From the IMG/VR virus record IMGVR_UViG_3300045988_150938: a stretch of 30,727 bases of DNA; one strand, given 5' to 3'. Shown in pieces: positions 677 through 30,098 of the stretch; position 1 is the stretch's first letter; the number at the start of each line of letters is the position of its first letter. The notes under the pieces were generated by a model. That model was given only the letters and a program-made list of their open reading frames with translations. It made no database searches and was not told where the DNA came from. The stretch comes from a virus. The position numbers and the translations under genes were made by a program.

Positions 677-1054
677 CTATTTTTTTCTTTGTTGTTTATT
701 ATAATCTTTTAATTCCAGGGTGTCTAATATGAACTCAAACCTTTTAAGTTCCTCTTCATTCATATTTTCTACCTCTTTAGCACACATACTCTCTACAGCA
801 TGCTTTTGTGAATCAAATTTACCAATATTAACTAGAGCAGTTAATATATTTCTTATATGGTTATCTACTTTAATCGTTGCTCTTTCTGTTTCACTTTTTA
901 TACCCAACTTACTAGGATCGCTTTGTCTATTTGATAACATTTTATTTATATTTAAGTCGTTTCTATCAATTTGATTATTTATAACAGGGTTGGGCTTTCT
1001 TTGTAAACTATTATTCTCGTTACTTTTTTTAAGCATACCCATAAGCTTAATCAC
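677..1054 (-). CDS. Small basic protein with a predicted ribbon-helix-helix core (RATIKVDNHIRNILTALV...). Putative centromere-binding partner (ParG/omega-like) of the ParA.
   Basis: Lies immediately downstream of parA and overlaps its stop by 8 nt. The N-terminal part is disordered and Lys/Asn-rich, followed by a beta-strand plus two helices. This is the typical type Ib partition operon layout. Confidence 0.5.
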   Translation of the reverse strand: MIKLMGMLKKSNENNSLQRKPNPVINNQIDRNDLNINKMLSNRQSDPSKLGIKSETERATIKVDNHIRNILTALVNIGKFDSQKHAVESMCAKEVENMNEEELKRFEFILDTLELKDYNKQQRKK

Positions 1055-1850
1055 CCAACCTTTCTACCAATTCTGAAGCAACTCCATCAAATATTTGGTG
1101 AACTCTTTTATCATGTATATCTTTTCCGTTGTCTGTTATTCCAGTCATATCCATCCTTTTAATGCGTTCCATAATGGATATTTTATTTTGAAAAATATAT
1201 TCTTCACCAAATTCTTCTGTAGCTAGTTTTAGAACTTCTTCATCTACTCTTGCTCCTCGTTTACTAAGGACTGGTAGTATTCCTAACACATCACAATTAG
1301 CATTAAATTCATTGACTAATGTATTTTGAAGATATTGTATAAATACTTCCGCTCCAGTAAGGCTTCTTTCTTGGGTTTGTAATACAACTACTATTTGATC
1401 GCAACAATAAAAAGCAGTGTCGTTTAACAAAGATAACGTTGGTGGAACATCTATAAAAATATAATCGTATTCATTTACAACTGGAGATAAATAGCTTTTC
1501 AAAAATTGAATTCTATCTATTTCATTTGAAAAATTCTTTTCTAAAAACCTTGAATATACCGAAAAATCTACAGCATTTGGTATTAGTGATAAGTTTTCTT
1601 TTATAGTTATAGTTAATTCTTTAGGGTTTATATTTTCAGTAATTCCCTTCATTAAAGACTTGTCTATAGTCGTGATATTATTATCTTTTGAACTAGTTTT
1701 GATCATTAATGCTGTTAAGTTTGCCTGCGCATCTAAGTCCACTAACAAAACTTTTTTTCCCATTTTAGCTAAACTATAACCTACTAAAGCTGTGGTACTC
1801 GTTTTCCCTACTCCACCTTTAAAATTTGCAAATGATATCGTCTTTCCCAT
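1047..1850 (-). CDS. parA: ParA/Soj-family partition ATPase.
   Basis: Deviant Walker A KGGVGKTS at the N-terminus and the LLVDLDAQANLT motif. At 267 aa it is a small type Ib ParA. A good RBS sits upstream at 1856-1862 (plus-strand aggaggt). Confidence 0.9.
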   Translation of the reverse strand: MGKTISFANFKGGVGKTSTTALVGYSLAKMGKKVLLVDLDAQANLTALMIKTSSKDNNITTIDKSLMKGITENINPKELTITIKENLSLIPNAVDFSVYSRFLEKNFSNEIDRIQFLKSYLSPVVNEYDYIFIDVPPTLSLLNDTAFYCCDQIVVVLQTQERSLTGAEVFIQYLQNTLVNEFNANCDVLGILPVLSKRGARVDEEVLKLATEEFGEEYIFQNKISIMERIKRMDMTGITDNGKDIHDKRVHQIFDGVASELVERLGD

Positions 1851-2158: not shown

Positions 2159-3061
2159 ATGAGTACAAATCAAAATGAGTTACAAGATAAATTAGCAGTA
2201 GAAGGTGTAAATGCAAATGGCTATGGTGTAATGCCTAAGCTTGTAATGCAAGATAAACGATTAACGATTGAAGCAAAATCAATCTATGCTTACATCGTTA
2301 GTTTTGCTGGCACAGGAAGTACAGCATTTCCTAGCTTACGGAAAATTCTAGAGGACTTACAGATTAGTGAAAAGCGTTTCTACAAACATCGTAAATTGTT
2401 AATTGACTGTAACTATATTTCTGTTACTCAAATTCGTAATGAGAAAAAAGAAATCATCAAAAATTTATACACGTTAATCTCTAATCCGAAAATTGAAGAA
2501 GAAGTACAAGATGAGGGTATCCGTCAAAATGACTGTGACCCTATCCCTCAATTTGACGGATACCCTATCAGTCAAAACGACCGACATAAAAGTAACAGTT
2601 TTAAAATTAACAATATAAAAGATGATGATGATATTAATAACGTATGCGAAGGCAAATTAACTCATGAAAATTTCTCTAACTATTCAACTCAAAAGGGCGT
2701 AGACTGTCCTTTAACAGTTCGAGAACGATTAACAACTGTACTCAAAGGAAAAGACTACTTAGCTCCGTTGGCGGTTTCTTTGCTTGCTGCTGGCGTGTCT
2801 GATGCAGACTGCTTAGAGATTATACAGTTTATTGTTACTTTGCCAGTCATTAATGAAGAAGTATCAGACCTGGTTAATGCACAAATACGTGCGAACGAAA
2901 CAGAAGCTAAAACAAACGGTCTTACTAGCTATAAGGCTTATTTCATTACAGGTTTAAAACAAAAGCTAGAAAATGCCGATATTTTTGTTCAAGAGACAAA
3001 TATTGTGAATCCTGATACAATTAAACCGTTACCAACTGTTACCATGCATAATTGGGTTTAA
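2159..3061 (+). CDS. repA: RepA_N-family plasmid replication initiator (N-terminal winged-helix domain).
   Basis: The N-terminal motif GYGVMPKLVMQDKRLTIEAKSIYAYIVSFAG...AFPSLRKILEDLQISEKRFYKHRKLLIDCNYI matches the RepA_N signature of Firmicutes theta plasmids. RBS ggaggggt is 6 nt upstream. The repeats at 1914-2062 lie upstream. Confidence 0.75.
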   Translation: MSTNQNELQDKLAVEGVNANGYGVMPKLVMQDKRLTIEAKSIYAYIVSFAGTGSTAFPSLRKILEDLQISEKRFYKHRKLLIDCNYISVTQIRNEKKEIIKNLYTLISNPKIEEEVQDEGIRQNDCDPIPQFDGYPISQNDRHKSNSFKINNIKDDDDINNVCEGKLTHENFSNYSTQKGVDCPLTVRERLTTVLKGKDYLAPLAVSLLAAGVSDADCLEIIQFIVTLPVINEEVSDLVNAQIRANETEAKTNGLTSYKAYFITGLKQKLENADIFVQETNIVNPDTIKPLPTVTMHNWV

Positions 3062-3086
3062 TTTGTTGAATGGAGGAGGAAAGAAA

Positions 3087-4049
3087 ATGAAAGAAGAACA
3101 AAACAGAGTAGAGAAAACCAAAAGAAAAAAAAGGACCAAAACGGCCATCTTGATAATTTTATTTTTACTTGTTATAAGCGGAGGAGCATTTACATTAGTA
3201 AATAGCAAAAATTTATTTTCAGATCATACTGCTAAAAGTAAACATGTGAGTATTTCTAGCGAGACCAAAGAATCTAAAAGTAAATCAAGTACATCATCCA
3301 GCCATGTAAGTAACCGTGATGAGAGTAAAAAAGAAGTAGACACGACGGATTTATCAAATGAACAAGTTGTAGAATGGATAAATTATGTAGTAGATAATTG
3401 GGAGAAAGCACACAATATTGCTTGGTCATATACTGTTGATCGGTTAAATGATTTAAACGGGCGAGATAGTAATTCAATTTATTATAGTGTTAGATTTCAA
3501 AATCCAAAATATCCCATGATGATATTACGAATTAATCCAGAAGGAATCATGGAATTTGAAACTAATACAGTAGACGCAACTAAAAATAAGAATTTTGAAT
3601 ATAAAGTTTTATCTAAAAACTATAAAGATATCAGTTTGATTAATGATTTAGATACTTCTGAATTAAGTAAAATATCGCAACAAACAGAGCAATCATCTAA
3701 TAATAGTTCTGGATATAGTTCATTAAACATCAATCAAAGAATTAGTTTAATGGCACGCTTACATGACAAAATTGATTTTCAAGATTTTGTCAATATCACT
3801 TATAATATAACTGAACTTCCTGATGGAACTCAAAATGTTGTAATTAGAAATTATGGTCTCCATGCTCACACAGAAACAATTGCATACAAAGTAGATAAAA
3901 CTTCTATAAATCCAAGCTCGTTTCCAAGCGATCAGACAACTACAAAAAACGACTTGTTCAAAATGTACGAACAAGACAAAGATAAGTATAATGAATTGGC
4001 AACTAAAGTTAGTTATGATTCTTCTTTAGAATTTTCACAAAATAATTAA
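3087..4049 (+). CDS. Membrane-anchored, Ser-rich extracytoplasmic protein. It has a basic N-terminus, one TM helix (AILIILFLLVISGGAFTLV) and a Ser/Lys-rich linker. Candidate superinfection-exclusion or surface protein.
   Basis: The ATG at 3087 is preferred over the track start at 3063 because RBS ggaggagga lies 6 nt upstream. A bidirectional terminator follows. The gene sits between the rep and repressor genes. Confidence 0.6.
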   Translation: MKEEQNRVEKTKRKKRTKTAILIILFLLVISGGAFTLVNSKNLFSDHTAKSKHVSISSETKESKSKSSTSSSHVSNRDESKKEVDTTDLSNEQVVEWINYVVDNWEKAHNIAWSYTVDRLNDLNGRDSNSIYYSVRFQNPKYPMMILRINPEGIMEFETNTVDATKNKNFEYKVLSKNYKDISLINDLDTSELSKISQQTEQSSNNSSGYSSLNINQRISLMARLHDKIDFQDFVNITYNITELPDGTQNVVIRNYGLHAHTETIAYKVDKTSINPSSFPSDQTTTKNDLFKMYEQDKDKYNELATKVSYDSSLEFSQNN

Positions 4050-4097: not shown

Positions 4098-4832
4098 TTA
4101 TTTTACGACTTTTCCGATTATATATATTTCATCAGTTTTTGAAGTATAAAAATCTGGAAACAAGCGGTTGCCATCTTTATCAACATCGGTATTAAAAGAA
4201 ACAAAGCGTAGTCTGTCTTTTTCTTTATAGATACGTTTGATAAATGCATTTCCGTTAATTTCAACACATCCTATCATACCTTGTTCTATTTCAGATTGTT
4301 TTCTAACAAAAATTATTTGACCATCTTCATAAGTTGGATACATGCTGTCGCCAGATACACGGAATGCTAAATCATAATCTTTTGGAATATCATTTTCAGG
4401 AATCTCTATTGTTTCTATAGGTTGACATTTATCATAATTAATTGTTCCATATCCAGCGGTCATAATCCCATATAAATTTACAGATTTTTTGACTGGTAAA
4501 GATATAACATTGTTTTTTTCTTGTTTTTGTTCCTTTAGCTGTTGCTTTGCAGAGTTTAGTACAACTAATTTTCTATCAGAAGTTAATTGGTTAAGAATAG
4601 TTGTAATTCTTGAAATTATATCTGAATCTTCATTACTTAAATTAAGCAAATCCTCTGGTTTCATATTTAGTCCATCAGCGATTTTAATTATATTTTCAAC
4701 TTTAGCATTCATGATTCCACGTTGGAGAATTGATCTAACAGTTGTGTATGGTAATCCAATTTCTATTGAGAACGCATTAACATTTCCAAATTTTAATTCA
4801 ATCAATTTTTTTAAACGATCTTCTAAGTTCAT
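4098..4832 (-). CDS. LexA/CI-like autoproteolytic repressor with an N-terminal HTH and a C-terminal S24 peptidase domain.
   Basis: C-terminal RVSGDSMYPTYEDGQIIFV (Ser nucleophile) and FIKRIYKE (Lys). N-terminal HTH (NVNAFSIEIGLPYTTVRSI). The start at the ATG of MNLEDRL is chosen because of a strong RBS (aggaggtga, 4 nt spacer). The longer ORF-track start at 4880 lacks an RBS. Confidence 0.85.
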   Translation of the reverse strand: MNLEDRLKKLIELKFGNVNAFSIEIGLPYTTVRSILQRGIMNAKVENIIKIADGLNMKPEDLLNLSNEDSDIISRITTILNQLTSDRKLVVLNSAKQQLKEQKQEKNNVISLPVKKSVNLYGIMTAGYGTINYDKCQPIETIEIPENDIPKDYDLAFRVSGDSMYPTYEDGQIIFVRKQSEIEQGMIGCVEINGNAFIKRIYKEKDRLRFVSFNTDVDKDGNRLFPDFYTSKTDEIYIIGKVVK

Positions 4833-4859
4833 GTGATCACCTCCTGAAAGTATAGTACC

Positions 4860-4977
4860 ATACGAAAAATCGTATAACAAGAGATAAATCCATTGACAAT
4901 GTACGAAAAATCGTATATTGTTTAATTAAACAATATTTAGCGTTTATTTTTTTATAACGATATACGAAAATTCGTAC
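4860..4977. promoter_or_regulatory. Divergent immunity-switch region. It holds three 16-bp inverted-repeat operators, (a/g)tacgaaaa(a/t)tcgta(t/c), at 4860-4875, 4901-4916 and 4962-4977. A rightward promoter (ttgaca 4894-4899, tatatt 4914-4919) overlaps operator 2.
   Basis: Read directly: atacgaaaaatcgtat, gtacgaaaaatcgtat, atacgaaaattcgtac. The half-sites atacga/tcgtat are perfect inverted repeats. Confidence 0.75.
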
Positions 4978-6377: not shown

Positions 6378-7104
6378 ACAAGAAATGGAAGAATCCAATT
6401 TTTTGGATGAATATAAAAAAGCTGGTTGGAAACTATGTTCAAGAATTCTTGGCATAAAAGAAGAGGAGACAACAATGGATAAACAAGAATTGATTGAAGA
6501 GTTAAAATGCTTAGAAGTTAAAACAGGTAGTCTCGATTATCTGAAAGGAGCTAACTATGCAACAGAAAGAGCAATTAGTTTAGCAAAACAACTAGACGAA
6601 CCGAAAAAAGTCATATTTTCGCATGAAGAGAAATTTGTGGCTGACTGGCTTAATGATTTAAGAGGTCAAATCAGTAATGTTAAGTTAAATTCTGGGGCTG
6701 TTTTCATGACGTTCATCGGCAGACAGTTAGAGCGGTACTATGATGAAGAATACTCGTTTTTAACTGAAAAAATAGAGAGCTGGCTTACAGTTCCAAAAAA
6801 TAAAGTTAAACTAATGAGCGCCATTGACAACGGCTACGAAGTCGAGAAAGAGCCAATCATTCATGAACTAAAGATCTTACCAGAATACTTTGAAGCAGTT
6901 GTTTCAGGTAATAAACGTTTTGAAATCCGTAAGAATGACCGTAACTATAAAAAAGGCGATATCTTACGCTTAAACGAATATCAAGACGGACAATATACAG
7001 GTGATGTCTATGTCGCAGAAATAACTTACATTACAAATTATGCACAACAAGATGGCTATATTGTCTTAGGGATTAAGGGGAAGCAGGTAACTAATGAAAA
7101 CTGA
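6370..7104 (+). CDS. Protein with a C-terminal ASCH/DUF3850-like (PUA-like) domain.
   Basis: The C-terminal LKILPEYFEAVVSGNKRFEIRKNDRNYKKGDILRLNEYQDG...VYVAEITYI matches the DUF3850/ASCH pattern. The start is chosen as an ATGA-type overlap with the upstream stop. The track start at 6343 is an alternative. Confidence 0.55.
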   Translation: MNKQEMEESNFLDEYKKAGWKLCSRILGIKEEETTMDKQELIEELKCLEVKTGSLDYLKGANYATERAISLAKQLDEPKKVIFSHEEKFVADWLNDLRGQISNVKLNSGAVFMTFIGRQLERYYDEEYSFLTEKIESWLTVPKNKVKLMSAIDNGYEVEKEPIIHELKILPEYFEAVVSGNKRFEIRKNDRNYKKGDILRLNEYQDGQYTGDVYVAEITYITNYAQQDGYIVLGIKGKQVTNEN

Positions 7105-7579
7105 TTTAACCAAACAAGCCGAGAAATGCTTGTGGTACTACACCAACAAAATGGGTGTGTTCGGCTGTTTTGAGGTGACAATTGGATGGTTCGGTAAGGA
7201 AAGAGTTGATTTCATGACTTATTCAACGGACAACACTATTAGATGTTATGAAATAAAAGTAACGTTGGCAGACTTAAAGAGCTCTGCAAAACAAACGTTT
7301 TTAGGTGATTATAACTATTTAGTAGTTACGAACAAATTATGGGAAAAGATTCAAGCCAATCCAGATTTGAGATGGAAATATCACAACCAAGGAATACTAG
7401 TTTTTTCTGAACTAAGACACAATTTAGGTATTACAAGTGTTAAAAAGGCGAAAAAACAAAATGTACCTCTAGGAACACGAGCAACGGTCTTAGAAAGTAT
7501 GGTGCGATCTTTAAATCGAGAAGTTGAGAAATTTTACAAGGTAAAGCCTTTTTGGGGATTAAGTGAGGAGGATGAATAA
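7094..7579 (+). CDS. MmcB-like PD-(D/E)XK-family putative nuclease.
   Basis: The motif series E...ERVDFM...CYEIKVTLADLKS...NYLVV fits the D / E-x-K core of the MmcB-like restriction-endonuclease fold. Confidence 0.45.
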   Translation: MKTDLTKQAEKCLWYYTNKMGVFGCFEVTIGWFGKERVDFMTYSTDNTIRCYEIKVTLADLKSSAKQTFLGDYNYLVVTNKLWEKIQANPDLRWKYHNQGILVFSELRHNLGITSVKKAKKQNVPLGTRATVLESMVRSLNREVEKFYKVKPFWGLSEEDE

Positions 7580-7762
7580 ATGGAACAAATTATATTAACA
7601 AATATTGATGAAAATAAAATTGATATGGAAGCAACAGGACTAGAACAAAAAGAAATTGTCTTTACATTATCTGCTGCTTTAATTGGATACAGCAAAGAAT
7701 TAGGCTTAACAAAAGCGATACTAAATGAAATTATGTCCGATCTGTGGAAAGATGATGAATAG
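7580..7762 (+). CDS. Hypothetical small acidic protein (60 aa).
   Basis: RBS gaggagga is 8 nt upstream. Confidence 0.55.
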   Translation: MEQIILTNIDENKIDMEATGLEQKEIVFTLSAALIGYSKELGLTKAILNEIMSDLWKDDE

Positions 7763-7921
7763 ATGAAGTACAAAACTAGATATCACAGCATTGTTCCGAA
7801 AGGACAAATAGGCGAGTGTGTTGATAAAGTCGATGGAAAAATTTTAGCTTTATTGATCAAATTTGAAAATGGCGAAGTATTTTGGTTTATGAAGCGAGAC
7901 CTAATTAAAATTGAGGAGTGA
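7763..7921 (+). CDS. Hypothetical small protein (52 aa, MKYKTRYHSIVPKGQIGECVDKVDGKILALLIKFENGEVFWFMKRDLIKIEE). Not in the supplied ORF track because it falls under the 60-aa cutoff.
   Basis: Manual translation. The ORF fills an otherwise gene-free 155-bp gap in a dense operon. Confidence 0.35.
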   Translation: MKYKTRYHSIVPKGQIGECVDKVDGKILALLIKFENGEVFWFMKRDLIKIEE

Positions 7922-8159: not shown

Positions 8160-9059
8160 ATGAAAAATATACAACCTTACTTTTCTCATGATAGCAATGC
8201 ACGAAATTCTGATGAGTTAATTCCAGTACGCATGAAATTTGGTGCAGAAGGTTATGGCGTATATTTTATGTTGTTAGAACGATTAAGGGAAGAAGGAAAC
8301 TACACGAGTATCAAAGATTATAATACGATAGCCTTTGATCTTCGTGTAGATACTTCAATCATTAAATCAGTTATTGAAGACTTTGGGTTATTTGCCTTCA
8401 CCGAAGACGGTGAGTGTTTTTACTCCGAAGGCTTGAATAAACGAATGGCCTTTATGGAAGAAAAATCAAAAAAACGTTCTGAAGCAGGTAGAAAAGGCGC
8501 TGAAAAACGCTGGTCACAAAATCAAAATGAGTCAAATGCTATGAATGAGGAAAATAAAAATATAGCAAAAAAAAGGCAAACGGATAGCAATGCTATAGCA
8601 AAGCCATCTAAAAAAAATAGCAAACCTAAAAATGCTAATGCGATTGCTACCGAAAAAAATAGCAATAAAATAAAAGAAAATAAAAACAAAGAAAATAAAA
8701 TAAAAACAAAAGAAACTGCTGCTTATTCTAGTATAGATAAGACAAAAGATAGTAAAGCTGTTTCCTACTGGTTAACTCAAGTCCACCCAGCAGAAGCACC
8801 AACGATTATGGAATCGATTAATTTTTGGGTAGAAGATTTTGGAGGATATGACGAAATTGTTATATTGGCCATTGATGAAATGTTGAAAAATGGGGCTAAG
8901 AGCTATAACTATTTGGATACCATTCTAAAATCTTGGGAAACAAAAAAACTAGATACACCTGAAAAGGTGAAAAAACATTTATCTGGTTATTATAACAAGC
9001 GCAAGAATGATAATAACCAAAAAGGTGGGAGTATGAGTGACTGGGACGAATTACTTTGA
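8160..9059 (+). CDS. Phage replisome-organizer-type replication protein. It has an N-terminal DUF4373 (Lin1244/Lin1753-like) domain and a C-terminal DnaD-like (DnaB_2) domain, joined by a Lys/Asn-rich low-complexity linker.
   Basis: N-terminal YFSHDSNARNSDELI...GAEGYGVYFMLLERL. C-terminal YWLTQVHPAEAPTIMESINFWVEDFGGYDEIVILAIDEMLKNGAKSYNYLDTILKSWE. Confidence 0.75.
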   Translation: MKNIQPYFSHDSNARNSDELIPVRMKFGAEGYGVYFMLLERLREEGNYTSIKDYNTIAFDLRVDTSIIKSVIEDFGLFAFTEDGECFYSEGLNKRMAFMEEKSKKRSEAGRKGAEKRWSQNQNESNAMNEENKNIAKKRQTDSNAIAKPSKKNSKPKNANAIATEKNSNKIKENKNKENKIKTKETAAYSSIDKTKDSKAVSYWLTQVHPAEAPTIMESINFWVEDFGGYDEIVILAIDEMLKNGAKSYNYLDTILKSWETKKLDTPEKVKKHLSGYYNKRKNDNNQKGGSMSDWDELL

Positions 9060-9918
9060 GTATTTATCACAAGTGCATGAAATAGACGAACGTTGCGAGA
9101 TTCACGGTACTCGATTAAAAGTTTTTAAAGACTTTGAACCGTTTTGTCTAGCTTGTAGGGAAGAACGTATCAGGGAAGAAGAACAAAAGAGATTCGAACA
9201 AGCTTTTGACAGGAAGAAGCGACGGACTACACAAGAGGTTCTTTTAAAGGACAGCGTTTATACTGATTCAACACTGCAATCCGCTTGCTTTGAAAATTAC
9301 CATGCGAAACCAGGTACTGAAGCAGAACAGGCCAAAGAATTTGCTATAAATCAAGCAAGGGAGTATTACCGATTACGTTTAGAAAATAATAAATCAATTG
9401 AGCAAGAACAAGAAGAGCAACAGCCAGCATTTACTACGGTCTTTAGTGGACCAGTTGGCGTTGGAAAAAGTCATTTAGCAATGAGTATTTTAAAAAAATT
9501 GAATGAATATAACGATTTGACTTACTCGTGTTTATTTTTCAGTCTGGATCAATTATTGAGACGTATTCGAAATAGTTATGACGATGAAAGTGAGTATCTT
9601 ACTGAAGCAAGAGCGGTACAACTGGCGCTGGACGCTGATTATTTTGTACTTGATGATTTAGGAGCAGAGGTAGGAAGCATTGAAACGAATAAGCGAGCTA
9701 CTGACTTTATGATTCGGGTATTAAATGCAATCGTTGATGGTCGCCAAGGAAAAGGATTGATTATTACAACGAATCTAACAAACTTACAGATTCAAGCAAT
9801 TTATGGTCATCGTATTTACAGTCGCTTATTTGCAAACTCAAAAAATCATTTGTTTATTTTCAATGACGAACGACAAACACCAGACTATCGATTAATGGGC
9901 GGTGAAAAAAATGTGTAA
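9037..9918 (+). CDS. DnaI/DnaC-like helicase-loader AAA+ ATPase (IstB-like) with an N-terminal Cys/His zinc-binding region.
   Basis: Walker A FSGPVGVGKSHLA, Walker B YFVLDDLGAE, and N-terminal CEIHGT...CLACREE. Overlaps the upstream gene by 23 nt. Confidence 0.8.
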   Translation: MTGTNYFEYLSQVHEIDERCEIHGTRLKVFKDFEPFCLACREERIREEEQKRFEQAFDRKKRRTTQEVLLKDSVYTDSTLQSACFENYHAKPGTEAEQAKEFAINQAREYYRLRLENNKSIEQEQEEQQPAFTTVFSGPVGVGKSHLAMSILKKLNEYNDLTYSCLFFSLDQLLRRIRNSYDDESEYLTEARAVQLALDADYFVLDDLGAEVGSIETNKRATDFMIRVLNAIVDGRQGKGLIITTNLTNLQIQAIYGHRIYSRLFANSKNHLFIFNDERQTPDYRLMGGEKNV

Positions 9919-10102
9919 GTGGTGTAATGACAAACGAGTGGTACAAGAATTTGATTCACTTTTTGGCATTTTAAAGGTTAAACCTTGTCCTGTTTGTAAT
10001 CAAATAGTCAATAATTACGAAGCTCAAAAGGACGGTGACCTATTAAATGACAGACAATTTTTGGATGCTCCAGGGAAATCAATTGAAAAAATGGCGAGAT
10101 AG
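9902..10102 (+). CDS. Small zinc-ribbon protein (CxxC...CxxC).
   Basis: CKWCND...CPVCNQ. Confidence 0.5.
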   Translation: MKKMCKWCNDKRVVQEFDSLFGILKVKPCPVCNQIVNNYEAQKDGDLLNDRQFLDAPGKSIEKMAR

Positions 10103-10283
10103 AAGAAATCTAACACAAAAACAATTAGCCATGAAAATAGGTTGTCAACGTATGACGATTAGCAGGATAGAACAAGAAAAGCAAAAACCATCGTTAGAAT
10201 TAGCCTATTCTTTAGCAAATGCTTTAGATTTAAAGATAGAAGACCTCTTTTTATTTGAAAACAAGGAGCGTGAAAATGTGTGA
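10047..10283 (+). CDS. XRE-family HTH transcriptional regulator. The true start is possibly the internal Met at 10065.
   Basis: LTQKQLAMKIGCQRMTISRIEQEKQKPSLELAYSLANAL is a classic Cro/C1-type HTH. Confidence 0.65.
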   Translation: MTDNFWMLQGNQLKKWRDRRNLTQKQLAMKIGCQRMTISRIEQEKQKPSLELAYSLANALDLKIEDLFLFENKERENV

Positions 10284-10549
10284 TCACTGAAAATTATATT
10301 CATTCAGAAGGAAGAAGATTCGATGTACCGATTAAAAGAAAACGGACAAAAAGTAATGTAAAAGTTGGCGGCATTTATTGGTGTTCTGTAAAACCGTTTC
10401 AAGGTAAGATACGTGCGGAATGTTTAACGATTTACGATAATTCGGCATTAGTAAAAATTATCGTATGTGAAAAAGAAGCCGATGAAGCGTTACAAGTTCA
10501 ATTAAATCACCTAACTGTGGTTAGCTTAAAAAATATGAAAGGCGTGTAA
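10280..10549 (+). CDS. Hypothetical protein (89 aa).
   Basis: ORF in the operon. Its start overlaps the upstream stop (ATGTGTGA). Confidence 0.45.
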   Translation: MITENYIHSEGRRFDVPIKRKRTKSNVKVGGIYWCSVKPFQGKIRAECLTIYDNSALVKIIVCEKEADEALQVQLNHLTVVSLKNMKGV

Positions 10550-10552
10550 CAA

Positions 10553-10777
10553 ATGAGTAAGCAAAAGAGAAAGTCGTTAGCTTCTGATCACCCTTATAAG
10601 CGCATCAAAGAGGTTGCAAGACGTTATGGGTATAAATGTATTAGTAACGTAAAAAAATGGGACTGTGGCCGTTTTGAGGCGTTTGACTGGCATATTGGAA
10701 AAGTAATCTTAGTAGACTTAAAGGAAGCGAGTGTGAGTGAATGGAATCCAATGACAAAAGAGTGGGATCAGCAATAG
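10553..10777 (+). CDS. Hypothetical basic protein (74 aa).
   Basis: ORF with upstream RBS-like sequence. Confidence 0.45.
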   Translation: MSKQKRKSLASDHPYKRIKEVARRYGYKCISNVKKWDCGRFEAFDWHIGKVILVDLKEASVSEWNPMTKEWDQQ

Positions 10778-10989
10778 AATTAGCGCCAGAACAAGAGAAC
10801 ATGATTCGTGTATGTACACGCCAATACATGGATGATACAAATAATTATCCAAGAGCATGGTCTGATCGGAAAGACGCTGTTATTACCAAGTATAAACCTG
10901 TCTATCGTCTAATGGAAAAATACCCCGAGCCAGCAATGATTCAACGAATCGGCAATATAATTGTGGACGAATGGCGCAAGTATGAATAA
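10741..10989 (+). CDS. Hypothetical protein (82 aa).
   Basis: ORF; coding-like composition. Confidence 0.4.
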   Translation: MESNDKRVGSAIELAPEQENMIRVCTRQYMDDTNNYPRAWSDRKDAVITKYKPVYRLMEKYPEPAMIQRIGNIIVDEWRKYE

Positions 10990-10994
10990 CCTTT

Positions 10995-11030
10995 TTTCGA
11001 AAAAGAGTTATTCTGTTATAATTAACAGAA
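10995..11030 (+). promoter_or_regulatory. Putative promoter with an extended -10 (TGtTATAAT at 11014-11022) preceded by an A/T palindrome (cttttttcgaaaaag). Candidate middle/late promoter.
   Basis: Read directly: ctgttataatt. Confidence 0.4.
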
Positions 11031-11056
11031 AGAAGTAATGAACAGGAGAATAACCC

Positions 11057-11620
11057 ATGGCAAAATTCCAGAATGTATTTAAAGAAGCAAGTCGACGCAT
11101 GAAAAATTTCCAAGCTCGTGGCTTTATTCCATCAGGTTCTAAGTATGTTTTCCAAGATTTTGTCAATGAAGTATCGGCAGAGAATAGAGGAGAAAACTAT
11201 ACAGGTGCTTATACAAAGAATGCATACAATCAAGCCTATGGATCAAATATAGATTACGATTCTTCAGAAACTTTTCAAGAGATTCAACAAGGTCGAAATG
11301 AAAAACTCGTTCAAATTTACCAAAAAGAATTACTAGAAATTTATCATACGAATGATTTCTATGATATGGCATCTGATTACGGAAATGGCCGAGGAGGAGG
11401 TTTTTCACCTTCTGGAGTAATGAATATTGATACTCTTGAAGGATTAATTGATAATGCAAGCGAAGCTATGAATGTAGAGCCTTATCTATTTAGAAATAAA
11501 GTAGGGCGTAATAGAAGTGAAGAATCTAGTATGATGGACACATATCAAAATCAATTCATCGAAGAGTTAGGTCGTTTAATCGATGAAATGAGCGAACAAA
11601 AAATGAAATTTAAATACTAA
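11057..11620 (+). CDS. Hypothetical protein (187 aa), first gene after the putative late promoter.
   Basis: RBS acaggaga is 7 nt upstream. No recognisable motif. Confidence 0.6.
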   Translation: MAKFQNVFKEASRRMKNFQARGFIPSGSKYVFQDFVNEVSAENRGENYTGAYTKNAYNQAYGSNIDYDSSETFQEIQQGRNEKLVQIYQKELLEIYHTNDFYDMASDYGNGRGGGFSPSGVMNIDTLEGLIDNASEAMNVEPYLFRNKVGRNRSEESSMMDTYQNQFIEELGRLIDEMSEQKMKFKY

Positions 11621-11636
11621 AAGTTAGGTGGAACTT

Positions 11637-12638
11637 ATGAGCAATGAGGTAATGAAATCTGATGCATTTCAAAAAAAAGTAAAAACAATGTTAGGATTAA
11701 CTTATTTAACACGTGCCAAATTAGATGGATTTAACGGAAACCACTATATTTTGAAAGACATCTATGTAAATTCTACTAAAAATACTTCGCAAATCCATTA
11801 CCTTGGATGGGATGATCCACAAAAAATCCCTTTTTATCCTGATACAGATAGTTATCGTGGAGCAACTTCAGGAAGCAAGTATAACAAAGAGTTACTTGTT
11901 CCTAATGAACGAATGATTGAATATGATTTTGCTGAAGCATATACAAATATCATGAGAAACTATAAACTGCCATCGAATGTATACCTAGAAAATGTGCGTT
12001 TTGACAAAGAAAAATTATTAGAGCGGTTAGTTAGTTATGATAAACCTCAACCATACAAAGAATTATCAACGTTCGTTTTTGTAAAAGTTGCCATTGAAGC
12101 AATTGCAAAAGAAAGTACGTATACTGCTTTTGGTTCACATTTTCAACAATATCGAAAAAATCTTAGTCGTACATTAACAGTTACTGAAATTGAATTAAAG
12201 TTAATTATGGATTTTTATGATGTAAAAGCATTAGAAATACTAGAAACGTATACTTTCCGAACACGTAAAGGACTGTTAGAAGATTATTTTGAAAAAATTG
12301 ATCGACTAAAAGAGGATGAAGAAACAAAATTCTTTTATAAAATGTTACGGAACAAAATTTATGGAACGATTGGTAAACGTGAGTTGTCTACTCACGAAGC
12401 AAAAATATTTAAGTTTCCAATGTATAATCGTGCATTTTCTTCAATGGTAGCTGGCGTGTTTAGAGATAGAATCGCACGCTACGAACAAAAGTATGTAAAT
12501 AGTGAATATGGACTTGTATTAATTAAAACAGACGGCTTGTATTTTAAAAAAGAAGTTCCTGAATTTGAAGCATTAAACAAAAAAGGGATTGTAAAGAAAA
12601 AAGTACATGTTATTACAGACCATGATGTGAAAAATTAA
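11637..12638 (+). CDS. Hypothetical protein (333 aa) directly upstream of the encapsidation ATPase.
   Basis: RBS aggtgg is 6 nt before the ATG at 11637. It contains YPDTDSYRG and KIYGTIGK segments, but not in polymerase order. Confidence 0.6.
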   Translation: MSNEVMKSDAFQKKVKTMLGLTYLTRAKLDGFNGNHYILKDIYVNSTKNTSQIHYLGWDDPQKIPFYPDTDSYRGATSGSKYNKELLVPNERMIEYDFAEAYTNIMRNYKLPSNVYLENVRFDKEKLLERLVSYDKPQPYKELSTFVFVKVAIEAIAKESTYTAFGSHFQQYRKNLSRTLTVTEIELKLIMDFYDVKALEILETYTFRTRKGLLEDYFEKIDRLKEDEETKFFYKMLRNKIYGTIGKRELSTHEAKIFKFPMYNRAFSSMVAGVFRDRIARYEQKYVNSEYGLVLIKTDGLYFKKEVPEFEALNKKGIVKKKVHVITDHDVKN

Positions 12639-12697
12639 AAAAGAAATAAAAAGCGAAGCAGACAAGCTTTGCTTTTTTGATAGAAAGTGTGAAAAGA

Positions 12698-13870
12698 ATG
12701 GAGAAAAATAAATATGAAACGGAAGAAGGTTATTTAAATGTGCCAATCATATGGGAAGAAGTGGAACAATTCGCTTTTTTAGTTGGCGCACGAAACGTAG
12801 GTAAAACTTATGGATTCTTAAATTTTTCAATCAAACGAGGATTAGATACTATTTTAGAATGTTTTGATTTTTCTACACTACAGGAATTTAAAAAATTACC
12901 TACTTTGATGGAAGCAGAATTTCAATTTTTATTTTTACGCCGATATATTACACAAGCTAAGTCTGCCAGTAGAAATTTAGTATTGGCTGATTTTTATCAA
13001 CCATTTTTAGATAAGTTGCCTGAAGAAGTAAAAAAACAATATGAAGTATTTGTAGAATATCAGGGCTCTTCAGAAGAGCCTAGAGAAATACTATTAGTTT
13101 TTAGAAATAAGGAACTAAAAAAAGATAAAAAATGTATTAAATTAGGTTATCTTGGTGCGGTAAGTATGGCAGAAAAATTTAGAGGACCAGGTCTGCCAAA
13201 AGTAAAAGTAATATTATTGGATGAATTTCAATCGAAAAAAAATTGGGATTATTTACCAAATGAACCTGTAGAGCTAGAAGATATTTACGAATCCGTTGGA
13301 CGTTTAAGATGTGGAACTGGAGATATTAAAGTGATTGCATTAGGGAATTCAGGGACAATTTTAAATCCTTATTTTGATTATTATGGATATGACGAATTCA
13401 CGGAGGTTAAAACAGTAAAGCGTGAAGGAGAAGTTCTTTTTTATCATTTACCCAATAAAGCAAAAAGAAGCGAGCAATCTAAAAATTTATTTAAAGGATC
13501 AGCATATGGTAAATATTCATTAGATAATGATTTTGCGGACAATCAGTTATTTAATGTCATTCGTTTAAAAGAAGCAAAAGCACCTCGAAAATGTCTATAT
13601 AATATTTTCTTTGGGGAAACATATATCGGTGTTTGGAGAACAGGAGACTATAAAATTCTAATTAGCCGTGTAAGTGATCCAGATAAATTAGATATTGTTG
13701 ATCGGACACCTATAGAAGAACAAGTGCTAGATCAACAAGTATACAGGGTACTTTCAGATAAATTACAAAACAAACAACTTTATTTTGATTCGCCAGAATT
13801 GAGGTTAATTGCTGAAAAACACTTGCGCAAATATATTTATAATTCTGCGAGTGAATGGGAAACATTTTAA
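12698..13870 (+). CDS. phi29 gp16-like DNA encapsidation ATPase.
   Basis: FLVGARNVGKTYGF is alignable to phi29 FVIGARGIGKSYAM. KVILLDEFQSKKNWDYLPNE...RLRCGTGDIKVIALGNSGTILNPYF is alignable to phi29 IVFDEFIREKDNSNYIPNE...RVRCICLSNAVSVVNPYF. SLDNDFADNQLF matches SLDNQFIGDSQVF. The start is uncertain between TTG 12677 and ATG 12698. Confidence 0.85.
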   Translation: MEKNKYETEEGYLNVPIIWEEVEQFAFLVGARNVGKTYGFLNFSIKRGLDTILECFDFSTLQEFKKLPTLMEAEFQFLFLRRYITQAKSASRNLVLADFYQPFLDKLPEEVKKQYEVFVEYQGSSEEPREILLVFRNKELKKDKKCIKLGYLGAVSMAEKFRGPGLPKVKVILLDEFQSKKNWDYLPNEPVELEDIYESVGRLRCGTGDIKVIALGNSGTILNPYFDYYGYDEFTEVKTVKREGEVLFYHLPNKAKRSEQSKNLFKGSAYGKYSLDNDFADNQLFNVIRLKEAKAPRKCLYNIFFGETYIGVWRTGDYKILISRVSDPDKLDIVDRTPIEEQVLDQQVYRVLSDKLQNKQLYFDSPELRLIAEKHLRKYIYNSASEWETF

Positions 13871-13879
13871 CAAATAAAA

Positions 13880-13912
13880 AAACCACTCTATCAAAAATAG
13901 AGTGGTTTTTAC
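13880..13912 (+). terminator. Rho-independent terminator after the ATPase gene (accactctat / atagagtggt followed by ttttt).
   Basis: 10-bp perfect stem plus T-run. Confidence 0.8.
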
Positions 13913-14007
13913 GTTGTCAAGAGGTAAAAATGAGCGAAGTATGTCGCATTGATGAGCGATGTACGTCGCTTTTTGATTTTTTCAAAAGAAAACATGCTAA
14001 ACTTCAC

Positions 14008-14036
14008 TTGAAATTTAAAAACTGGTGAAGTAAAAA
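14008..14036 (+). promoter_or_regulatory. Putative sigma-A promoter (ttgaaa, 17 nt, taaaaa) ahead of the fibre/lysis/head operon.
   Basis: Read directly. RBS gaagggagga and ATG follow at 14062. Confidence 0.35.
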
Positions 14037-14061
14037 ACTAAATTTGAAGGGAGGATAGGAA

Positions 14062-29169: not shown

Positions 29170-29358
29170 ATGCCACTTACCGGAAAGCAAATGCTAAAGC
29201 TCTTAAAAAATAATGGTTGGATTGAACGAAGACAAGAAGGCTCACATCATCACTTATACAAAGATGGCGTAAGAATTACAGTACCAGTTCATGGAAATCA
29301 AGATTTAGGAAAAGGGCTAGAGCGAAAAATCTTAAAAGATGCAGGGCTAAAAAAATAG
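29170..29358 (+). CDS. hicA: HicA-family mRNA interferase toxin.
   Basis: KQMLKLLKNNGWIERRQEGSHHHLYK...ITVPVHGNQDLGKGLERKILKDAGL is a near-canonical HicA. Confidence 0.9.
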   Translation: MPLTGKQMLKLLKNNGWIERRQEGSHHHLYKDGVRITVPVHGNQDLGKGLERKILKDAGLKK

Positions 29359-29387
29359 CCCTCGTCTTTCAAGAGAAGGAGGTACTT

Positions 29388-29597
29388 ATGTTTGAAAATG
29401 GAGAAATCATTTTATATCAAAATGGAGAACGGTATGAAGTTGGTATTGTTAAGGAGAGATACGATAATAGCGAAGGTATAGAAAGTTATCGTGTTTACTA
29501 TCATTCAGGCGATACTACTGCTTTGACAAATGCAACAGACATGAAAAAAATTTGCAATGAAGCAATGCTTCCTGAAATGTTAAGAAAGTTTGTATAA
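29388..29597 (+). CDS. Hypothetical 69-aa protein inserted between hicA and hicB.
   Basis: Strong RBS agaaggaggt. No recognisable motif. Confidence 0.55.
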   Translation: MFENGEIILYQNGERYEVGIVKERYDNSEGIESYRVYYHSGDTTALTNATDMKKICNEAMLPEMLRKFV

Positions 29598-29611
29598 AGG
29601 GAGGGAACATC

Positions 29612-30073: not shown

Positions 30074-30098
30074 GCGTTGTATGAAAAATCATACAACG
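30062..30098. terminator. Bidirectional stem-loop (aacgttgtatg / catacaacgtt followed by tttttt). It is the mirror of the hairpin at 627-662 and the inner edge of the right inverted repeat.
   Basis: Read directly. Partner of the left-arm hairpin. Confidence 0.75.

Follow-up and report, generated by a model that had tools for sequence, protein, structure and literature searches.

The 30,727-nt stretch of DNA analysed here (the window) can be recognised from its sequence as a complete EF62phi-type linear phage-plasmid of Enterococcus faecalis, in which we identified three putative replication modules: a replisome organiser with a helicase loader, an HTH_36 plasmid initiator, and a phi29-type small PolB with a partner protein. 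In the model that we consider best, and to which we give about an even chance, internal origins would fire the host replisome, through Rep in the plasmid state and through the organiser/loader pair in lytic growth, and the small PolB would complete the ends. The features discussed are the following.

1–700, unstranded: left terminal inverted repeat; its outermost 260 nt have 47–62% G+C, start with 5'-CCCC and contain many short palindromes
677–1850, minus strand: partition genes, ParA ATPase (1047–1850; AAA_31, 1.3e-40) and DUF5388 adaptor (677–1054; 1.6e-20)
1906–2078, unstranded: centromere between parA and rep, two 54-nt blocks of 8-bp repeats (GTGTACAG / GTAGACAG)
2159–3061, plus strand: plasmid-type initiator Rep, with HTH_36 winged-helix N-terminal domain, disordered linker and helical C-terminal domain
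2514–2620, unstranded: candidate plasmid origin inside rep, with 24-nt repeats, an inverted repeat and an AT-rich stretch
4098–4880, minus strand: CI-like repressor, HTH and S24 peptidase (Pfam Peptidase_S24, 1.5e-21, and HTH_26)
4860–4977, unstranded: cI-cro switch region, three TACGAAAAATCGTA palindromes around a rightward promoter-like site
8160–9059, plus strand: phage-type replisome organiser/initiator, with Lin1244_N (DUF4373), low-complexity linker and C-terminal DnaD domain
8562–8715, unstranded: candidate phage (lytic) origin in the organiser gene, five ATAGCAA boxes and an A-rich tract
9037–9918, plus strand: AAA+ helicase loader of the DnaC/DnaI/IstB class, with an N-terminal CxH...CxxC motif
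11057–11620, plus strand: candidate terminal protein (TP), 187 aa, of no known family, its function read only from gene position
11628–12638, plus strand: cut-down phi29-type PolB, 336 aa, without the exonuclease domain and most of the thumb
12677–13870, plus strand: phi29 gp16-type DNA encapsidation ATPase (Pfam Podovirus_Gp16, 3.8e-18; PHROG 2150, 1.3e-102)
13879–13971, plus strand: two strong hairpins with U tracts (z = -6.2), end of the cro-to-gp16 transcription unit
30027–30727, unstranded: right terminal inverted repeat; outermost 260 nt 100% identical to the left tip, inner part ~88%

The window shares 98–99% nucleotide identity with EF62phi-type elements in public records. EF62phi itself (NC_017732) and E. 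faecalis 'plasmids' such as pBE32_2 belong to the same element family, with the same gene order and terminal sequence, but their accessory early genes differ from those of the window. This EF62phi/pBE32_2 group constitutes cluster 22 of the phi29-related elements (PMC11476376). In the literature searched we found no paper discussing the replication modules, origins or small polymerase of the family. The organiser/loader pair is an ordinary temperate-phage initiator and loader, already annotated in EF62phi, where the RefSeq names are 'replication initiation protein' and 'DnaC-like helicase loader'. The early genes neighbouring the pair vary between family records, and the early region of the window is a mosaic, with positions 6832–7767 being 88.6% identical to siphophage phiEf11.

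The organiser gene (ATG start) encodes 299 aa, and profile searches bear out its initial annotation as a DUF4373-DnaD organiser, with both domains above the curated cut-offs: residues 7–91 match Pfam Lin1244_N (formerly DUF4373; E = 1.5e-10, 42.1 bits, cut-off 25) and residues 214–273 match the Pfam DnaB_2/DnaD domain (PF07261; E = 2.2e-14, 53.3 bits, cut-off 22). Matches were also obtained to NCBIfam TIGR01446 DnaD_dom (1.3e-13, 50.9 bits, cut-off 24.95), to PHROG 2562 'replication initiation protein' (1e-72) and, weakly, to the sequences of the DnaD domains 2I5U and 8OJJ in the PDB. The Lin1244_N domain is highly conserved in an alignment of 16 organiser homologues. The homologues amount to 1670, mainly in Lactobacillales chromosomes (prophages), and two contexts, a siphophage of E. 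faecium and a prophage integrated in E. faecalis, show the gene in the early operon. The organiser/loader pair is a module often met in early operons of prophages.

The loader gene starts with GTG, encodes 293 aa and overlaps the organiser gene by 23 nt, to which it is probably translationally coupled. Its product matches Pfam IstB_IS21 (27.4 bits, cut-off 24.1) and Pfam AAA, PHROG 50 'DnaC-like helicase loader' (2.3e-69) and, among PDB sequences, the DnaC of Aquifex and of E. coli. The protein has a readable Walker A motif (GPVGVGKS) and Walker B motif (VLDDLG), an IITTN that resembles sensor I, and an SR (arginine) box, and the CxH...CxxC motif lies at about residues 20–39. The NCBIfam matches (PRK08116 2.6e-22, DnaC 1.7e-10, DnaI 7.5e-5) are all far under the equivalog cut-offs, with 22.1 bits against 228 for DnaI PRK08939 and 40.9 bits against 357 for DnaC PRK07952, and no DnaI_N match was retrieved in the Pfam search. 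A DnaI orthologue was therefore rejected, and these sub-equivalog scores, together with the superfamily matches, point to a DnaC/DnaI-superfamily member of a phage clade, so that the DnaI/DnaC-family placement proposed initially holds at superfamily level and not as DnaI orthology. Since none of the ORFs scanned (Pfam, PHROG, NCBIfam) was identified as a gene for a replicative helicase, the pair presumably loads the host helicase. Both genes are intact, the organiser in 12 family records (dN/dS 0.07) and the loader in 11 (dN/dS 0.14), with more synonymous than non-synonymous polymorphic codons.

Inside the organiser gene, ATAGCAA boxes are present at 8562, 8584, 8595, 8617 and 8659, followed by the A-rich tract at about 8665–8715; 5 of the 11 ATAGCAA copies of the whole window fall within 104 bp. 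Over 55 non-identical homologous organiser genes, the density of the motif is 15.2 per kb in the 240 nt after the Lin1244_N domain and 0.156 per kb elsewhere in the loci, an enrichment of about 100-fold. The spacings are mostly multiples of 11 bp, and the motif is read in two frames about equally (86 versus 80 copies); some boxes coincide with a conserved peptide, SNAIA, which counts against the model favoured below. We suggest that this phased array is a candidate lytic origin, for which SPP1 oriL, located inside gene 38 (PMC6316719), offers a precedent of an origin within an initiator gene.

As initially described, the pair belongs to the plus-strand operon that follows cro. This operon lies behind three TACGAAAAATCGTA palindromes resembling CI operators (4860–4875, 4901–4916 and 4962–4977), which surround a rightward promoter-like site (4893–4921). 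Strand-wise matches to this motif number six, versus 0.61 expected by chance, and all of them are in the cI-cro intergenic region. On the plus strand, from cro to the hairpins after gp16, the terminator scan gave only two weak candidates (8397–8414 and 9623–9637), and the TP-like gene, the PolB gene and the organiser/loader pair share one transcription unit of CI-controlled early genes. The promoter scan, which returned 55 promoter-like sites versus 69.9 expected by chance, gave no convincing separate promoter for the candidate TP and mini-PolB genes.

The second theta-type initiation module lies beside the partition genes, in agreement with the earlier view that the element has two different ones. 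Its initiator had been named RepA_N, a name that the profiles do not sustain: the only Pfam match of Rep at E ≤ 0.01 is HTH_36 (7.5e-9), with no match to RepA_N (PF06970) at that threshold, no NCBIfam match and no PDB sequence match at E ≤ 1, and PF06970 was detected in 0 of 55 Rep homologues. Rep is better described as an HTH_36 initiator with a RepA_N-like three-part architecture, formed in the AF2 model by an N-terminal domain (residues 10–110), a disordered segment (114–165) and a C-terminal domain (169–272). The weak Foldseek matches of Rep include primosomal DnaB and the N-terminal domains of RepA_N proteins and of DnaD; 5KBJ, 4PQL, 4PT7 and the DnaD N-terminal domain 2V79 have a probability of 0.75–0.99 and E values of 0.18–1.3. 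These matches are not statistically significant. Full-length Rep homologues are encoded in ParA-adaptor-Rep cassettes of a plasmid-like contig (L009) and of another phage-plasmid (L010).

Three 24-nt tandem repeats (2518–2589) are present within rep, together with a 19-nt inverted repeat (2514–2532 / 2548–2566) and an AT-rich stretch (2595–2620). Homologues of rep with 61% and 37% identity have the 3 × 24-nt array at the corresponding place. Between the window and L009, identity at third codon positions is 0.78–1.00 at the array versus about 0.4–0.6 in the conserved N-terminal domain, and in L010 the repeat DNA motif is read in another reading frame. The disordered linker of the Rep model sits exactly over the repeat-array DNA, and the layout of Rep matches that of pSK41/RepA_N (PMC5703833). 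These three 24-bp repeats seem likely to be the plasmid-state origin and are our candidate for it; both cis-repeat arrays, in rep and in the organiser gene, are conserved far beyond the EF62phi family.

The 8-bp repeats at 1906–2078 were considered as Rep iterons and rejected, since they change with the par cassette and not with Rep. In relatives with a swapped par cassette (breakpoint at about 2064–2075) they are wholly replaced by ATCTACAA / ATCTACATGTAGAT and Rep is still 97% identical, so the repeats are assigned as the centromere, a reading likewise adopted in PMC11476376. If these were the iterons of the initial annotation, that designation has to be abandoned, the Rep-linked repeats being those at 2514–2589.

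The TP/PolB system had been thought to be replaced, but a reduced phi29-type PolB and a co-conserved candidate TP are encoded in the window, both under purifying selection (dN/dS 0.05 and 0.07, respectively). The window PolB does not match Pfam PolB (PF03175, DNA_pol_B_2) at E ≤ 10; the cut-off of 25.8 is passed by its homologues P0185 (27.1 bits) and P0193 (27.6 bits), which are 51–57% identical to it. The best PDB match of the family profile is phi29 DNAP (E = 1.7e-5, spanning TPR1 and motif B), and the top nine Foldseek PDB matches of the AF2 model (pLDDT 92.8, pTM 0.90) are all phi29 DNAP (E 4e-12 to 2e-10). Residues D100, K238, N242, Y245, G246 and D302 correspond to phi29 D249, K383, N387, Y390, G391 and D458, and D100, K238, G246 and D302 are invariant in 29 small-PolB sequences. 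At the position of phi29 D456, the first Asp of the DTD triad in motif C, the window protein has Lys, and most members of the family have either Lys or Arg; the KxY region is missing, and polymerase activity, as judged from these residues, is not assured. TPR1 is present, profile positions 163–245 aligning with phi29 311–394, and the motif A-B spacing is conserved. Aligned to phi29 150–575, the protein begins at about residue 155, without the ExoIII YxxxD, and is devoid of about 15 TPR2 residues, of phi29 473–527 and of the C-terminal 27 residues. Among 1.84 billion representative proteins the family is limited to four representative clusters of full length, and a wide gap in size lies between them and normal PolBs of about 530–660 aa.

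Homologues of the candidate TP (27–55% identity) are encoded upstream of the mini-PolB gene in 4 of the 4 distant relatives examined, one of which, the plasmid-like L097, has no phage genes in the 21 kb read and has a DnaD-domain gene directly after the mini-PolB gene. A theta-type Rep is present near one contig end in every mini-PolB phage-plasmid relative examined. The E. faecalis phage-plasmid L096 contains a Rep_3 initiator, a TP-like gene, mini-PolB and gp16, and neither organiser nor loader in the sequence read, which indicates that the pair is dispensable for a phage-plasmid lifestyle.

At the genome ends, the terminal 3' strand has a predicted folding MFE of -60.1 kcal/mol, versus -36.6 for shuffles (z = -6.24). 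The terminal tip sequence is the same in EF62phi, and in L096, a distant relative, the tip is likewise rich in G+C and includes a GCGCAAGCGC palindrome. The terminal palindrome of the window is imperfect, so it does not result from reading through a closed hairpin. The Pfam scan of ORFs, which took in only part of the short ones, detected neither a protelomerase nor a tyrosine recombinase, and no Tpg/Tap-type Pfam families appeared among the scanned ORFs. The presence of the small PolB and the candidate TP provides a concrete candidate answer to how the linear ends are replicated.

In the model that we favour, CI bound to the three operators at 4860–4977 would silence the rightward operon in the prophage state, and Rep would bind the 24-bp repeats in its own gene (2514–2589), open the adjacent AT-rich DNA and recruit the host primosome, in a low-copy replication coupled to ParA/DUF5388 segregation. 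Upon induction the organiser would be made, its N-terminal domain would bind the phased ATAGCAA boxes in its own gene (8562–8665), and the DnaD domain and the loader would deliver the replicative helicase of the host to the A-rich tract next to the boxes, so that the host replisome would then copy the 30.7-kb genome from an internal origin. Forks arriving at the ends would leave 3' overhangs, folded via the GC-rich terminal palindromes; the small PolB, which keeps TPR1 and is without proofreading, much of TPR2 and the thumb, would use the 187-aa protein as its primer at the terminal CCCC, filling the gap. The outcome would be protein-capped unit-length DNA, the substrate expected for a phi29-type packaging motor. 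The division of labour between plasmid and lytic replication, already proposed in the initial annotation, seems the most economical reading and is inferred only from gene position. End completion in lysogens is unexplained by the model, the candidate TP and mini-PolB genes being within the CI-controlled unit. With less confidence, we regard it as possible, if somewhat short of probable, that the element follows a hybrid route not described for phages, in which the host replisome would start from origins within initiator genes, a minimal 336-aa PolB and a 187-aa TP would cap the ends, and the theta-type initiators would have let the polymerase shrink.

Other readings have to be weighed against this model. 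The pair could be a redundant passenger that came in with a lambdoid early region through recombination with siphophages, with Rep firing in both states and the pair boosting copy number or restarting forks. This seems unlikely: L096 gets by with Rep_3, neither gene of the pair being present in the sequence read, the early region is a mosaic with its phiEf11-like segment (6832–7767, 88.6%), and for most Lin1244_N organisers of viral contigs no homologue of the window loader is detectable within 3 kb downstream, but the strong purifying selection on the pair (0.07 and 0.14), the intactness of both genes in 11–12 records though the neighbouring early genes vary, and the conserved ATAGCAA array, which argues for a working cis site, all speak against a passenger. 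We find it distinctly unlikely that lytic replication is instead protein-primed from both ends by the small PolB, as in phi29. On this reading the polymerase, having lost most of TPR2 and the thumb, would be unable to displace strands, and the pair would therefore load the host helicase to unwind ahead of it in place of firing a theta-type origin of its own. The polymerase retains catalytic residues and TPR1 and has a shortened TPR2, the subdomain that gives processivity and strand displacement (TPR1/TPR2 roles as in PMC6921018), which would suit such a partnership, as would the DnaD-domain gene directly after mini-PolB in L097 and the location of the pair in one transcription unit with the TP-like and PolB genes. 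Nevertheless, the copying of 30.7 kb would fall to a thumbless, proofreading-free polymerase, the ATAGCAA array lies inside the genome and not at its ends, and every phage-plasmid relative examined has a theta-type Rep. DnaC/DnaI-class loaders, moreover, act at opened origins or forks, which also counts against this reading.

The initial annotation favoured a full replacement of TP/PolB by the theta-type systems, which would leave the ends to, for example, hairpin telomeres or recombination. No full-length PolB is in fact encoded, the three scanned ORFs above 450 aa (tail-type 824, tail 608 and lysin 459 aa) are without polymerase match, the fourth being the major head protein, and the 11628–12638 product has no Pfam match of its own. 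We consider a full replacement very improbable nonetheless, since that product is clearly homologous to phi29 DNAP, its catalytic residues are conserved and its dN/dS is 0.05, the scanned ORFs include no protelomerase or tyrosine recombinase, and the terminal palindrome is imperfect. Least credible of all, and hardly to be expected, is that either initiator system has decayed to a remnant, a case that the initial annotation had allowed for. Rep has a higher rate of evolution than the other genes (dN/dS 0.30 in related records, with synonymous and non-synonymous polymorphic codons about equal, 23 versus 22), but no allele of Rep, organiser or loader has a stop codon, dN is well below dS in all three (8–12 related records), and both cis-repeat arrays are conserved far outside the family.

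[quoted passage not shown] SPP1 differs in bringing its own helicase, in its domain families and in being virulent. The SPP1 loader is not known to be an AAA+ protein. With the Bacillota DnaD/DnaB/DnaI primosome the pair shares the C-terminal DnaD domain and a DnaC/DnaI-class AAA+ loader, but the N-terminal domain of the organiser is Lin1244_N and not a DnaD N-terminal domain, and the loader is far below the DnaI/DnaC equivalog cut-offs and without a Pfam DnaI_N match. Rep resembles RepA_N proteins (pSK41) in its winged-helix N-terminal domain, repeat-encoded linker and helical C-terminal domain, and pPR9-type hybrids in having an N-terminal HTH_36 (pfam13730), a domain common to phage replication proteins (PMC5703833); it differs from RepA_N in the absence of PF06970 and in the weak fold similarity to RepA_N N-terminal domains (E 0.18–1.3), and no homology of its C-terminal domain to known RepA_N proteins was detected.

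The window shares with phi29 motifs A and B, the motif C catalytic Asp, YxGG and TPR1 of the polymerase, a PolB gene beside a gp16-type ATPase gene, a small gene upstream where the phi29 TP gene sits, and inverted terminal repeats with a reiterated terminal base. It differs in the size of the polymerase (336 versus 575 aa, with no ExoI–III, a TPR2 about 15 residues shorter, no 473–527 (KxY region) or thumb end, and Lys in place of the first motif C Asp), in terminal repeats of about 700 bp versus 6 bp, and in having theta-type initiators. Streptomyces linear replicons combine a bidirectional internal origin with end patching by a terminal protein, and have long terminal inverted repeats with GC-rich palindromes that fold the 3' overhang. 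The model proposed here would operate in this manner, and the window resembles these replicons in its terminal inverted repeats and in a 3' strand predicted to fold into multiple hairpins, but it has no Tpg/Tap homologue among the ORFs scanned, its polymerase is element-encoded and of phi29 type, its host belongs to the low-GC Bacillota, and the element itself is a tailed phage. The phage-plasmid P1 uses oriR/RepA in the plasmid state and oriL/RepL for lytic growth; the separation of lysogenic and lytic replicons is thus similar, but P1 has a circular genome and unrelated proteins. A full-length PolB is encoded by GIL01. It is a linear extrachromosomal prophage with protein-primed replication and, in contrast to the window, has no obvious plasmid modules (PMC11511902).

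The combination of a phi29-lineage phage with two theta-type initiators and a drastically reduced protein-priming polymerase is unusual. If the hybrid model is true, it would show how a virus with protein priming can leave most of its replication to the host and retain just an enzyme that completes the ends, as a counterpart among bacterial viruses of the telomere patching in Streptomyces. The small PolB would then be a minimal polymerase for protein priming made by nature, which might be of use in biotechnology. Origin mapping and incompatibility studies can be aimed directly at the two origins predicted within genes and at the centromere as assigned here. These predictions can be tested in an accessible system, since the element is common in human E. 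faecalis, an EF62phi-type element being present in 26% of the isolates of one urinary collection (PMC10746210).

The window is a complete linear element of 30,727 bp with terminal inverted repeats of ~700 bp, and over most of its extent it matches Enterococcus phage EF62phi, together with numerous E. faecalis records deposited as phage or plasmid, at 98-99% identity; the first and last bases, CCCCGGAGCG, are common to the window and the EF62phi record. EF62phi has been described as a linear phage that is pseudolysogenic and extrachromosomal; it was present in 26% of the isolates of one urinary collection (PMC10746210). A 2024 survey groups it with phi29-related elements and lists it as a phage-plasmid that carries a ParA system and a toxin-antitoxin pair (PMC11476376). 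The early region is mosaic (positions 6832-7767 are 88.6% identical to siphophage phiEf11) and is joined in the window to phi29-type structural genes. Our literature search on reduced PolB or EF62phi replication retrieved no account of either. Most public assemblies of the EF62phi family are truncated or circularised inside the terminal repeats.

The organiser gene (8160-9059) belongs to the DnaD family, as the initial annotation had proposed, with Pfam matches to Lin1244_N (former DUF4373; 42.1 bits, cut-off 25) and DnaB_2 (53.3 bits, cut-off 22), and with NCBIfam and PHROGs in agreement. The loader gene (9037-9918), which overlaps it by 23 nt and had been called DnaI-like, encodes a DnaC/DnaI/IstB-clade AAA+ protein: its IstB_IS21 score exceeds the Pfam cut-off, PHROG 50 ('DnaC-like helicase loader') is matched at 2.3e-69, DnaC structures were retrieved in the PDB sequence search, and the Walker A and Walker B motifs are intact. 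It falls, however, below the DnaI/DnaC orthologue thresholds, so that 'DnaI-like' stands as superfamily membership only. The RefSeq names of the EF62phi copies are 'replication initiation protein' and 'DnaC-like helicase loader'. Both genes are intact across 11-12 EF62phi-family records, with dN/dS at 0.07 (organiser) and 0.14 (loader), and at the sequence level this excludes that the pair is a decayed remnant, an outcome that had been considered at the outset. At its end, the loader gene shares sequence with a short ORF (9902-10102; 66 aa, two CxxC pairs, zinc-ribbon-like) that is 97-98% conserved within the EF62phi family.

We detected 1670 members of the organiser family, the majority of them on enterococcal, lactobacillar, lactococcal and Listeria chromosomes, and in both contexts opened, one an ordinary E. 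faecalis prophage in integrated form and the other a siphophage of E. faecium, the organiser gene follows recT in the early operon. Given these contexts and this chromosomal spread, the pair is a standard temperate-phage module. Adjacency of the loader was considered as a family rule and rejected, since tblastn placed a loader homologue downstream at only 5 of ~80 Lin1244_N loci, four EF62phi-family copies aside; organiser-loader pairing is thus not universal.

Three TACGAAAAATCGTA palindromes were found, all of them between cro and cI, which encodes an S24-type repressor; one lies within a TTGACA-17-TATTGT promoter-like site. From cro to gp16, the terminator scan returned two weak plus-strand candidates and no others before two strong hairpins that closely follow gp16, at 13879-13971. 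With such operators, and with no strong terminator before gp16, expression of the pair is predicted to be off in the prophage state and to be switched on after induction. The rep and par genes lie outside this transcription unit, and it is from gene position that a division of labour between Rep in the plasmid state and the pair in lytic growth, put forward in the initial annotation, may be proposed. A promoter scan for separate expression of the terminal protein (TP)-like and polymerase genes was set aside, as its promoter-like sites were not above chance.

We noticed that 5 of the 11 ATAGCAA heptamers of the window fall in the stretch 8562-8665, which encodes the linker joining the two organiser domains, and are followed by an A-rich tract. 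For comparison of this motif, ~80 loci encoding organiser relatives were gathered, and over 55 non-identical organiser genes the 240 nt that follow the Lin1244_N domain hold it at 15.2 per kb vs 0.156 per kb elsewhere in the loci. Two reading frames are used about equally (86 vs 80 copies), more than one frame being used in 35 of the 39 genes that hold two or more copies, and the copies mostly stand a multiple of 11 bp apart (11, 22, 33), with GATAGCAATGCTATAGCAA as core unit. Frame usage and phasing point to a DNA site, and a protein-level contribution to the conservation of the boxes may add to this, a conserved SNAIA peptide coinciding with some of them. SPP1 oriL offers a precedent for an origin within the organiser's own gene (PMC6316719), and we regard region 8562-8715 as a candidate origin. 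In the Lin1244_N organiser genes of many phages (L011-L093, ~3350-3590), the linker between the domains holds 3-5 ATAGCAA boxes ahead of a purine-rich tract; no description of such arrays in organiser genes was found in the papers searched.

The initiator gene of the left arm, rep (2159-3061), had been labelled RepA_N and credited with iterons, and neither assignment could be maintained. HTH_36 is the only Pfam match of Rep, NCBIfam and PDB sequence searches gave no match, and PF06970 is present, according to Pfam labels, in none of 55 Rep homologues, in several of which the N-terminal domain is fused to a DnaD domain. RepA_N membership was rejected on these four lines (Pfam, NCBIfam, PDB sequence and homologue labels), the architecture being retained: in the AF2 model, a winged-helix N-terminal domain spans 10-110, the segment 114-165 is disordered and the C-terminal domain is helical, and this layout matches that described for pSK41 Rep and likewise that of a pPR9-type hybrid with a pfam13730 N-terminal domain (PMC5703833). 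The best Foldseek matches of Rep, none of them significant, were RepA_N N-terminal domains, the DnaD N-terminal domain and primosomal DnaB. We conclude that Rep probably works like a RepA_N initiator and is not a profile-defined member of that family. Full-length homologues stand in ParA-adaptor-Rep cassettes of a plasmid-like contig (L009) and of a siphovirus-type phage-plasmid (L010), by which a plasmid-maintenance role of Rep is well supported. Within rep, we identified the following feature:

2514-2620: candidate plasmid origin, with three 24-nt tandem repeats, a 19-nt inverted repeat and an AT-rich stretch

The 24-nt repeats coincide exactly with the disordered segment of the model, and rep genes encoding proteins of 61% and 37% identity to Rep have a 3x24-nt array at the matching relative position. 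Third-codon-position identity between the window and L009 is 0.78-1.00 over the array vs ~0.4-0.6 in the conserved N-terminal domain and, in L010, the most distant homologue, the DNA motif of the array is read in another frame, so that what is conserved is DNA and not peptide. One public assembly, L007 (CP110029.1), ends exactly within this array, for which an assembly problem may be the cause. The 328-aa ORF directly after rep (3063-4049), kept in most of the EF62phi family and replaced by a DUF6287 protein in the related record L008, has a weak match, below the cut-off, to NF042931 (6.9e-10), a family of streptococcal/enterococcal surface-associated proteins, and may be a lysogenic-conversion or exclusion gene.

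The supposed iterons, 8-bp repeats at 1906-2078, follow the par cassette and not Rep. Three relatives (L002, L005 and L008) have a different ParA (49% identity) and lack the DUF5388 protein; in L008, the one whose parA-rep intergenic sequence was read, the 8-bp repeats are wholly unlike those of the window, whereas Rep keeps 97% identity and the ~90 bp immediately upstream of rep are nearly unchanged. The breakpoint between the window and L008 falls at ~2064-2075, just upstream of the rep promoter region. Since the repeats change with the cassette while Rep stays, we rejected them as Rep iterons and regard them as the centromere of the partition cassette, as was also assumed in PMC11476376. 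The whole cassette (adaptor, ParA and centromere repeats; 677-2078 in the window, 468-2137 in L008) is swapped between elements that are otherwise near-identical, as is also seen in L002 and L005.

The terminal-protein/PolB system was said to have been replaced; in fact, the ORF at 11628-12638 (336 aa, dN/dS 0.05), directly upstream of the gene for the gp16-type packaging ATPase, encodes a reduced phi29-type PolB. It has no Pfam match itself, and two homologues (51-57% identity) pass the DNA_pol_B_2 gathering score. With a 29-member family profile, the best PDB sequence was phi29 DNA polymerase (E=1.7e-5, spanning TPR1 and motif B), and the nine best structural matches of the AF2 model (pLDDT 92.8, pTM 0.90) were all phi29 DNA polymerase (E 4e-12 to 2e-10, ~330 columns). 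The family was aligned to phi29 residues 150-575, the phi29 sequence used having been checked over 99-132 and 311-394. In this alignment, YRG corresponds to the YxGG motif, Asp100 and Tyr105 to Asp249 and Tyr254 of phi29 (motif A), Lys238, Asn242, Tyr245 and Gly246 to Lys383, Asn387, Tyr390 and Gly391 (motif B), and Thr301-Asp302 to Thr457-Asp458 (motif C); Asp100, Lys238, Gly246 and Asp302 are invariant in all 29 sequences, and at the position of phi29 Asp456 most members have Lys or Arg. A 'YPDTDSY' stretch near residue 70 was rejected as motif C, as homologues do not conserve it. The exonuclease domain with its motifs, ~15 TPR2 residues, the region of phi29 473-527 (KxY) and the end of the thumb are absent. 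TPR1 makes contact with the terminal protein and TPR2 gives processivity and strand displacement (PMC6921018).

The family of the small polymerase is small and discrete, with four full-length clusters among 1.84 billion representative proteins, the next matches being ordinary polymerases of ~530-660 aa at E 1e-8 or weaker. One member lies in L097, a 30-kb contig with sortase, large surface-protein and integrase genes, where TP-like, small polymerase and DnaD-domain genes stand in a row (8934-11814); no phage genes were found in the 21 kb read, so that the small polymerase is not confined to phages. As to gp16, a phi29-type pRNA was sought and not found (no Rfam match at E<=1): the 190-nt gap that follows the gene (13871-14061) folds strongly (z = -6.2), as two terminator-type hairpins, and yielded no conserved consensus structure with two relatives.

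Terminal-protein genes of phi29-like and tectiviral genomes occupy a position equivalent to that of the 187-aa ORF at 11057-11620, whose homologues (27-55% identity) lie upstream of the small polymerase gene in all four distant relatives opened, L097 among them, and its gene position makes it a candidate terminal protein. The outermost 260 nt of the element (1-260 and 30468-30727) are 100% identical between the ends and the inner 440 nt have diverged (roughly 88%), which suggests ongoing homogenisation of, or strong constraint on, the tips. These 260 nt begin with CCCC and have a G+C content of 47-62% vs ~32% for the genome, and the terminal 3' strand folds as a series of hairpins (-60.1 kcal/mol vs -36.6 for shuffles, z = -6.24); in a relative with a 55%-identical polymerase the tip is likewise GC-rich and holds a GCGCAAGCGC palindrome. 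Protein priming by sliding back needs a reiterated terminal base, and end patching in Streptomyces acts on folded 3' overhangs. Hairpin telomeres, or a protelomerase, were rejected, as no recombinase family was present in the scanned ORFs and the terminal palindrome is imperfect.

A hybrid mode of replication is the most coherent reading of this gene set. Protein identities and their conservation, the cis-repeat arrays, the operators and the structure of the termini are established by the sequence analysis; origin function, timing, recruitment of the helicase, protein priming and activity of the polymerase are inferred. Bulk synthesis would fall to the host replisome, brought to internal origins by Rep in the plasmid state and by the organiser and loader after induction; the reduced polymerase would finish and cap the ends, with the 187-aa protein as its primer, giving protein-capped unit-length DNA to be packaged by the phi29-type motor. 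End completion in lysogens is left unexplained by this model if the TP-like and polymerase genes are CI-controlled.

The place of the pair in such a scheme was weighed on relatives that have the small polymerase. In L094 and L096, where gp16 is present as well, an initiator of the Rep_3 type lies close to one end of the contig, L096 having besides typical iterons, a phi29-type capsid gene and a connector gene, and neither organiser nor loader was found in the L096 sequence read; in the plasmid-like L097, a DnaD-domain gene directly follows the polymerase gene. The constant set of the two phi29-type relatives opened is a theta-type initiator, a TP-like gene, the small polymerase and gp16, and the pair is an accessory of the EF62phi branch. 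Two main rivals stand against the hybrid reading: in one, the pair would be a redundant passenger, and in the other it would supply a helicase to a polymerase no longer able to displace strands.

At the right end, a HicA/HicB toxin-antitoxin pair (29170-30073) adjoins the terminal repeat; in the window, as in L007, a 69-aa ORF (29388-29597) lies between hicA and hicB, and in EF62phi the two genes are adjacent.
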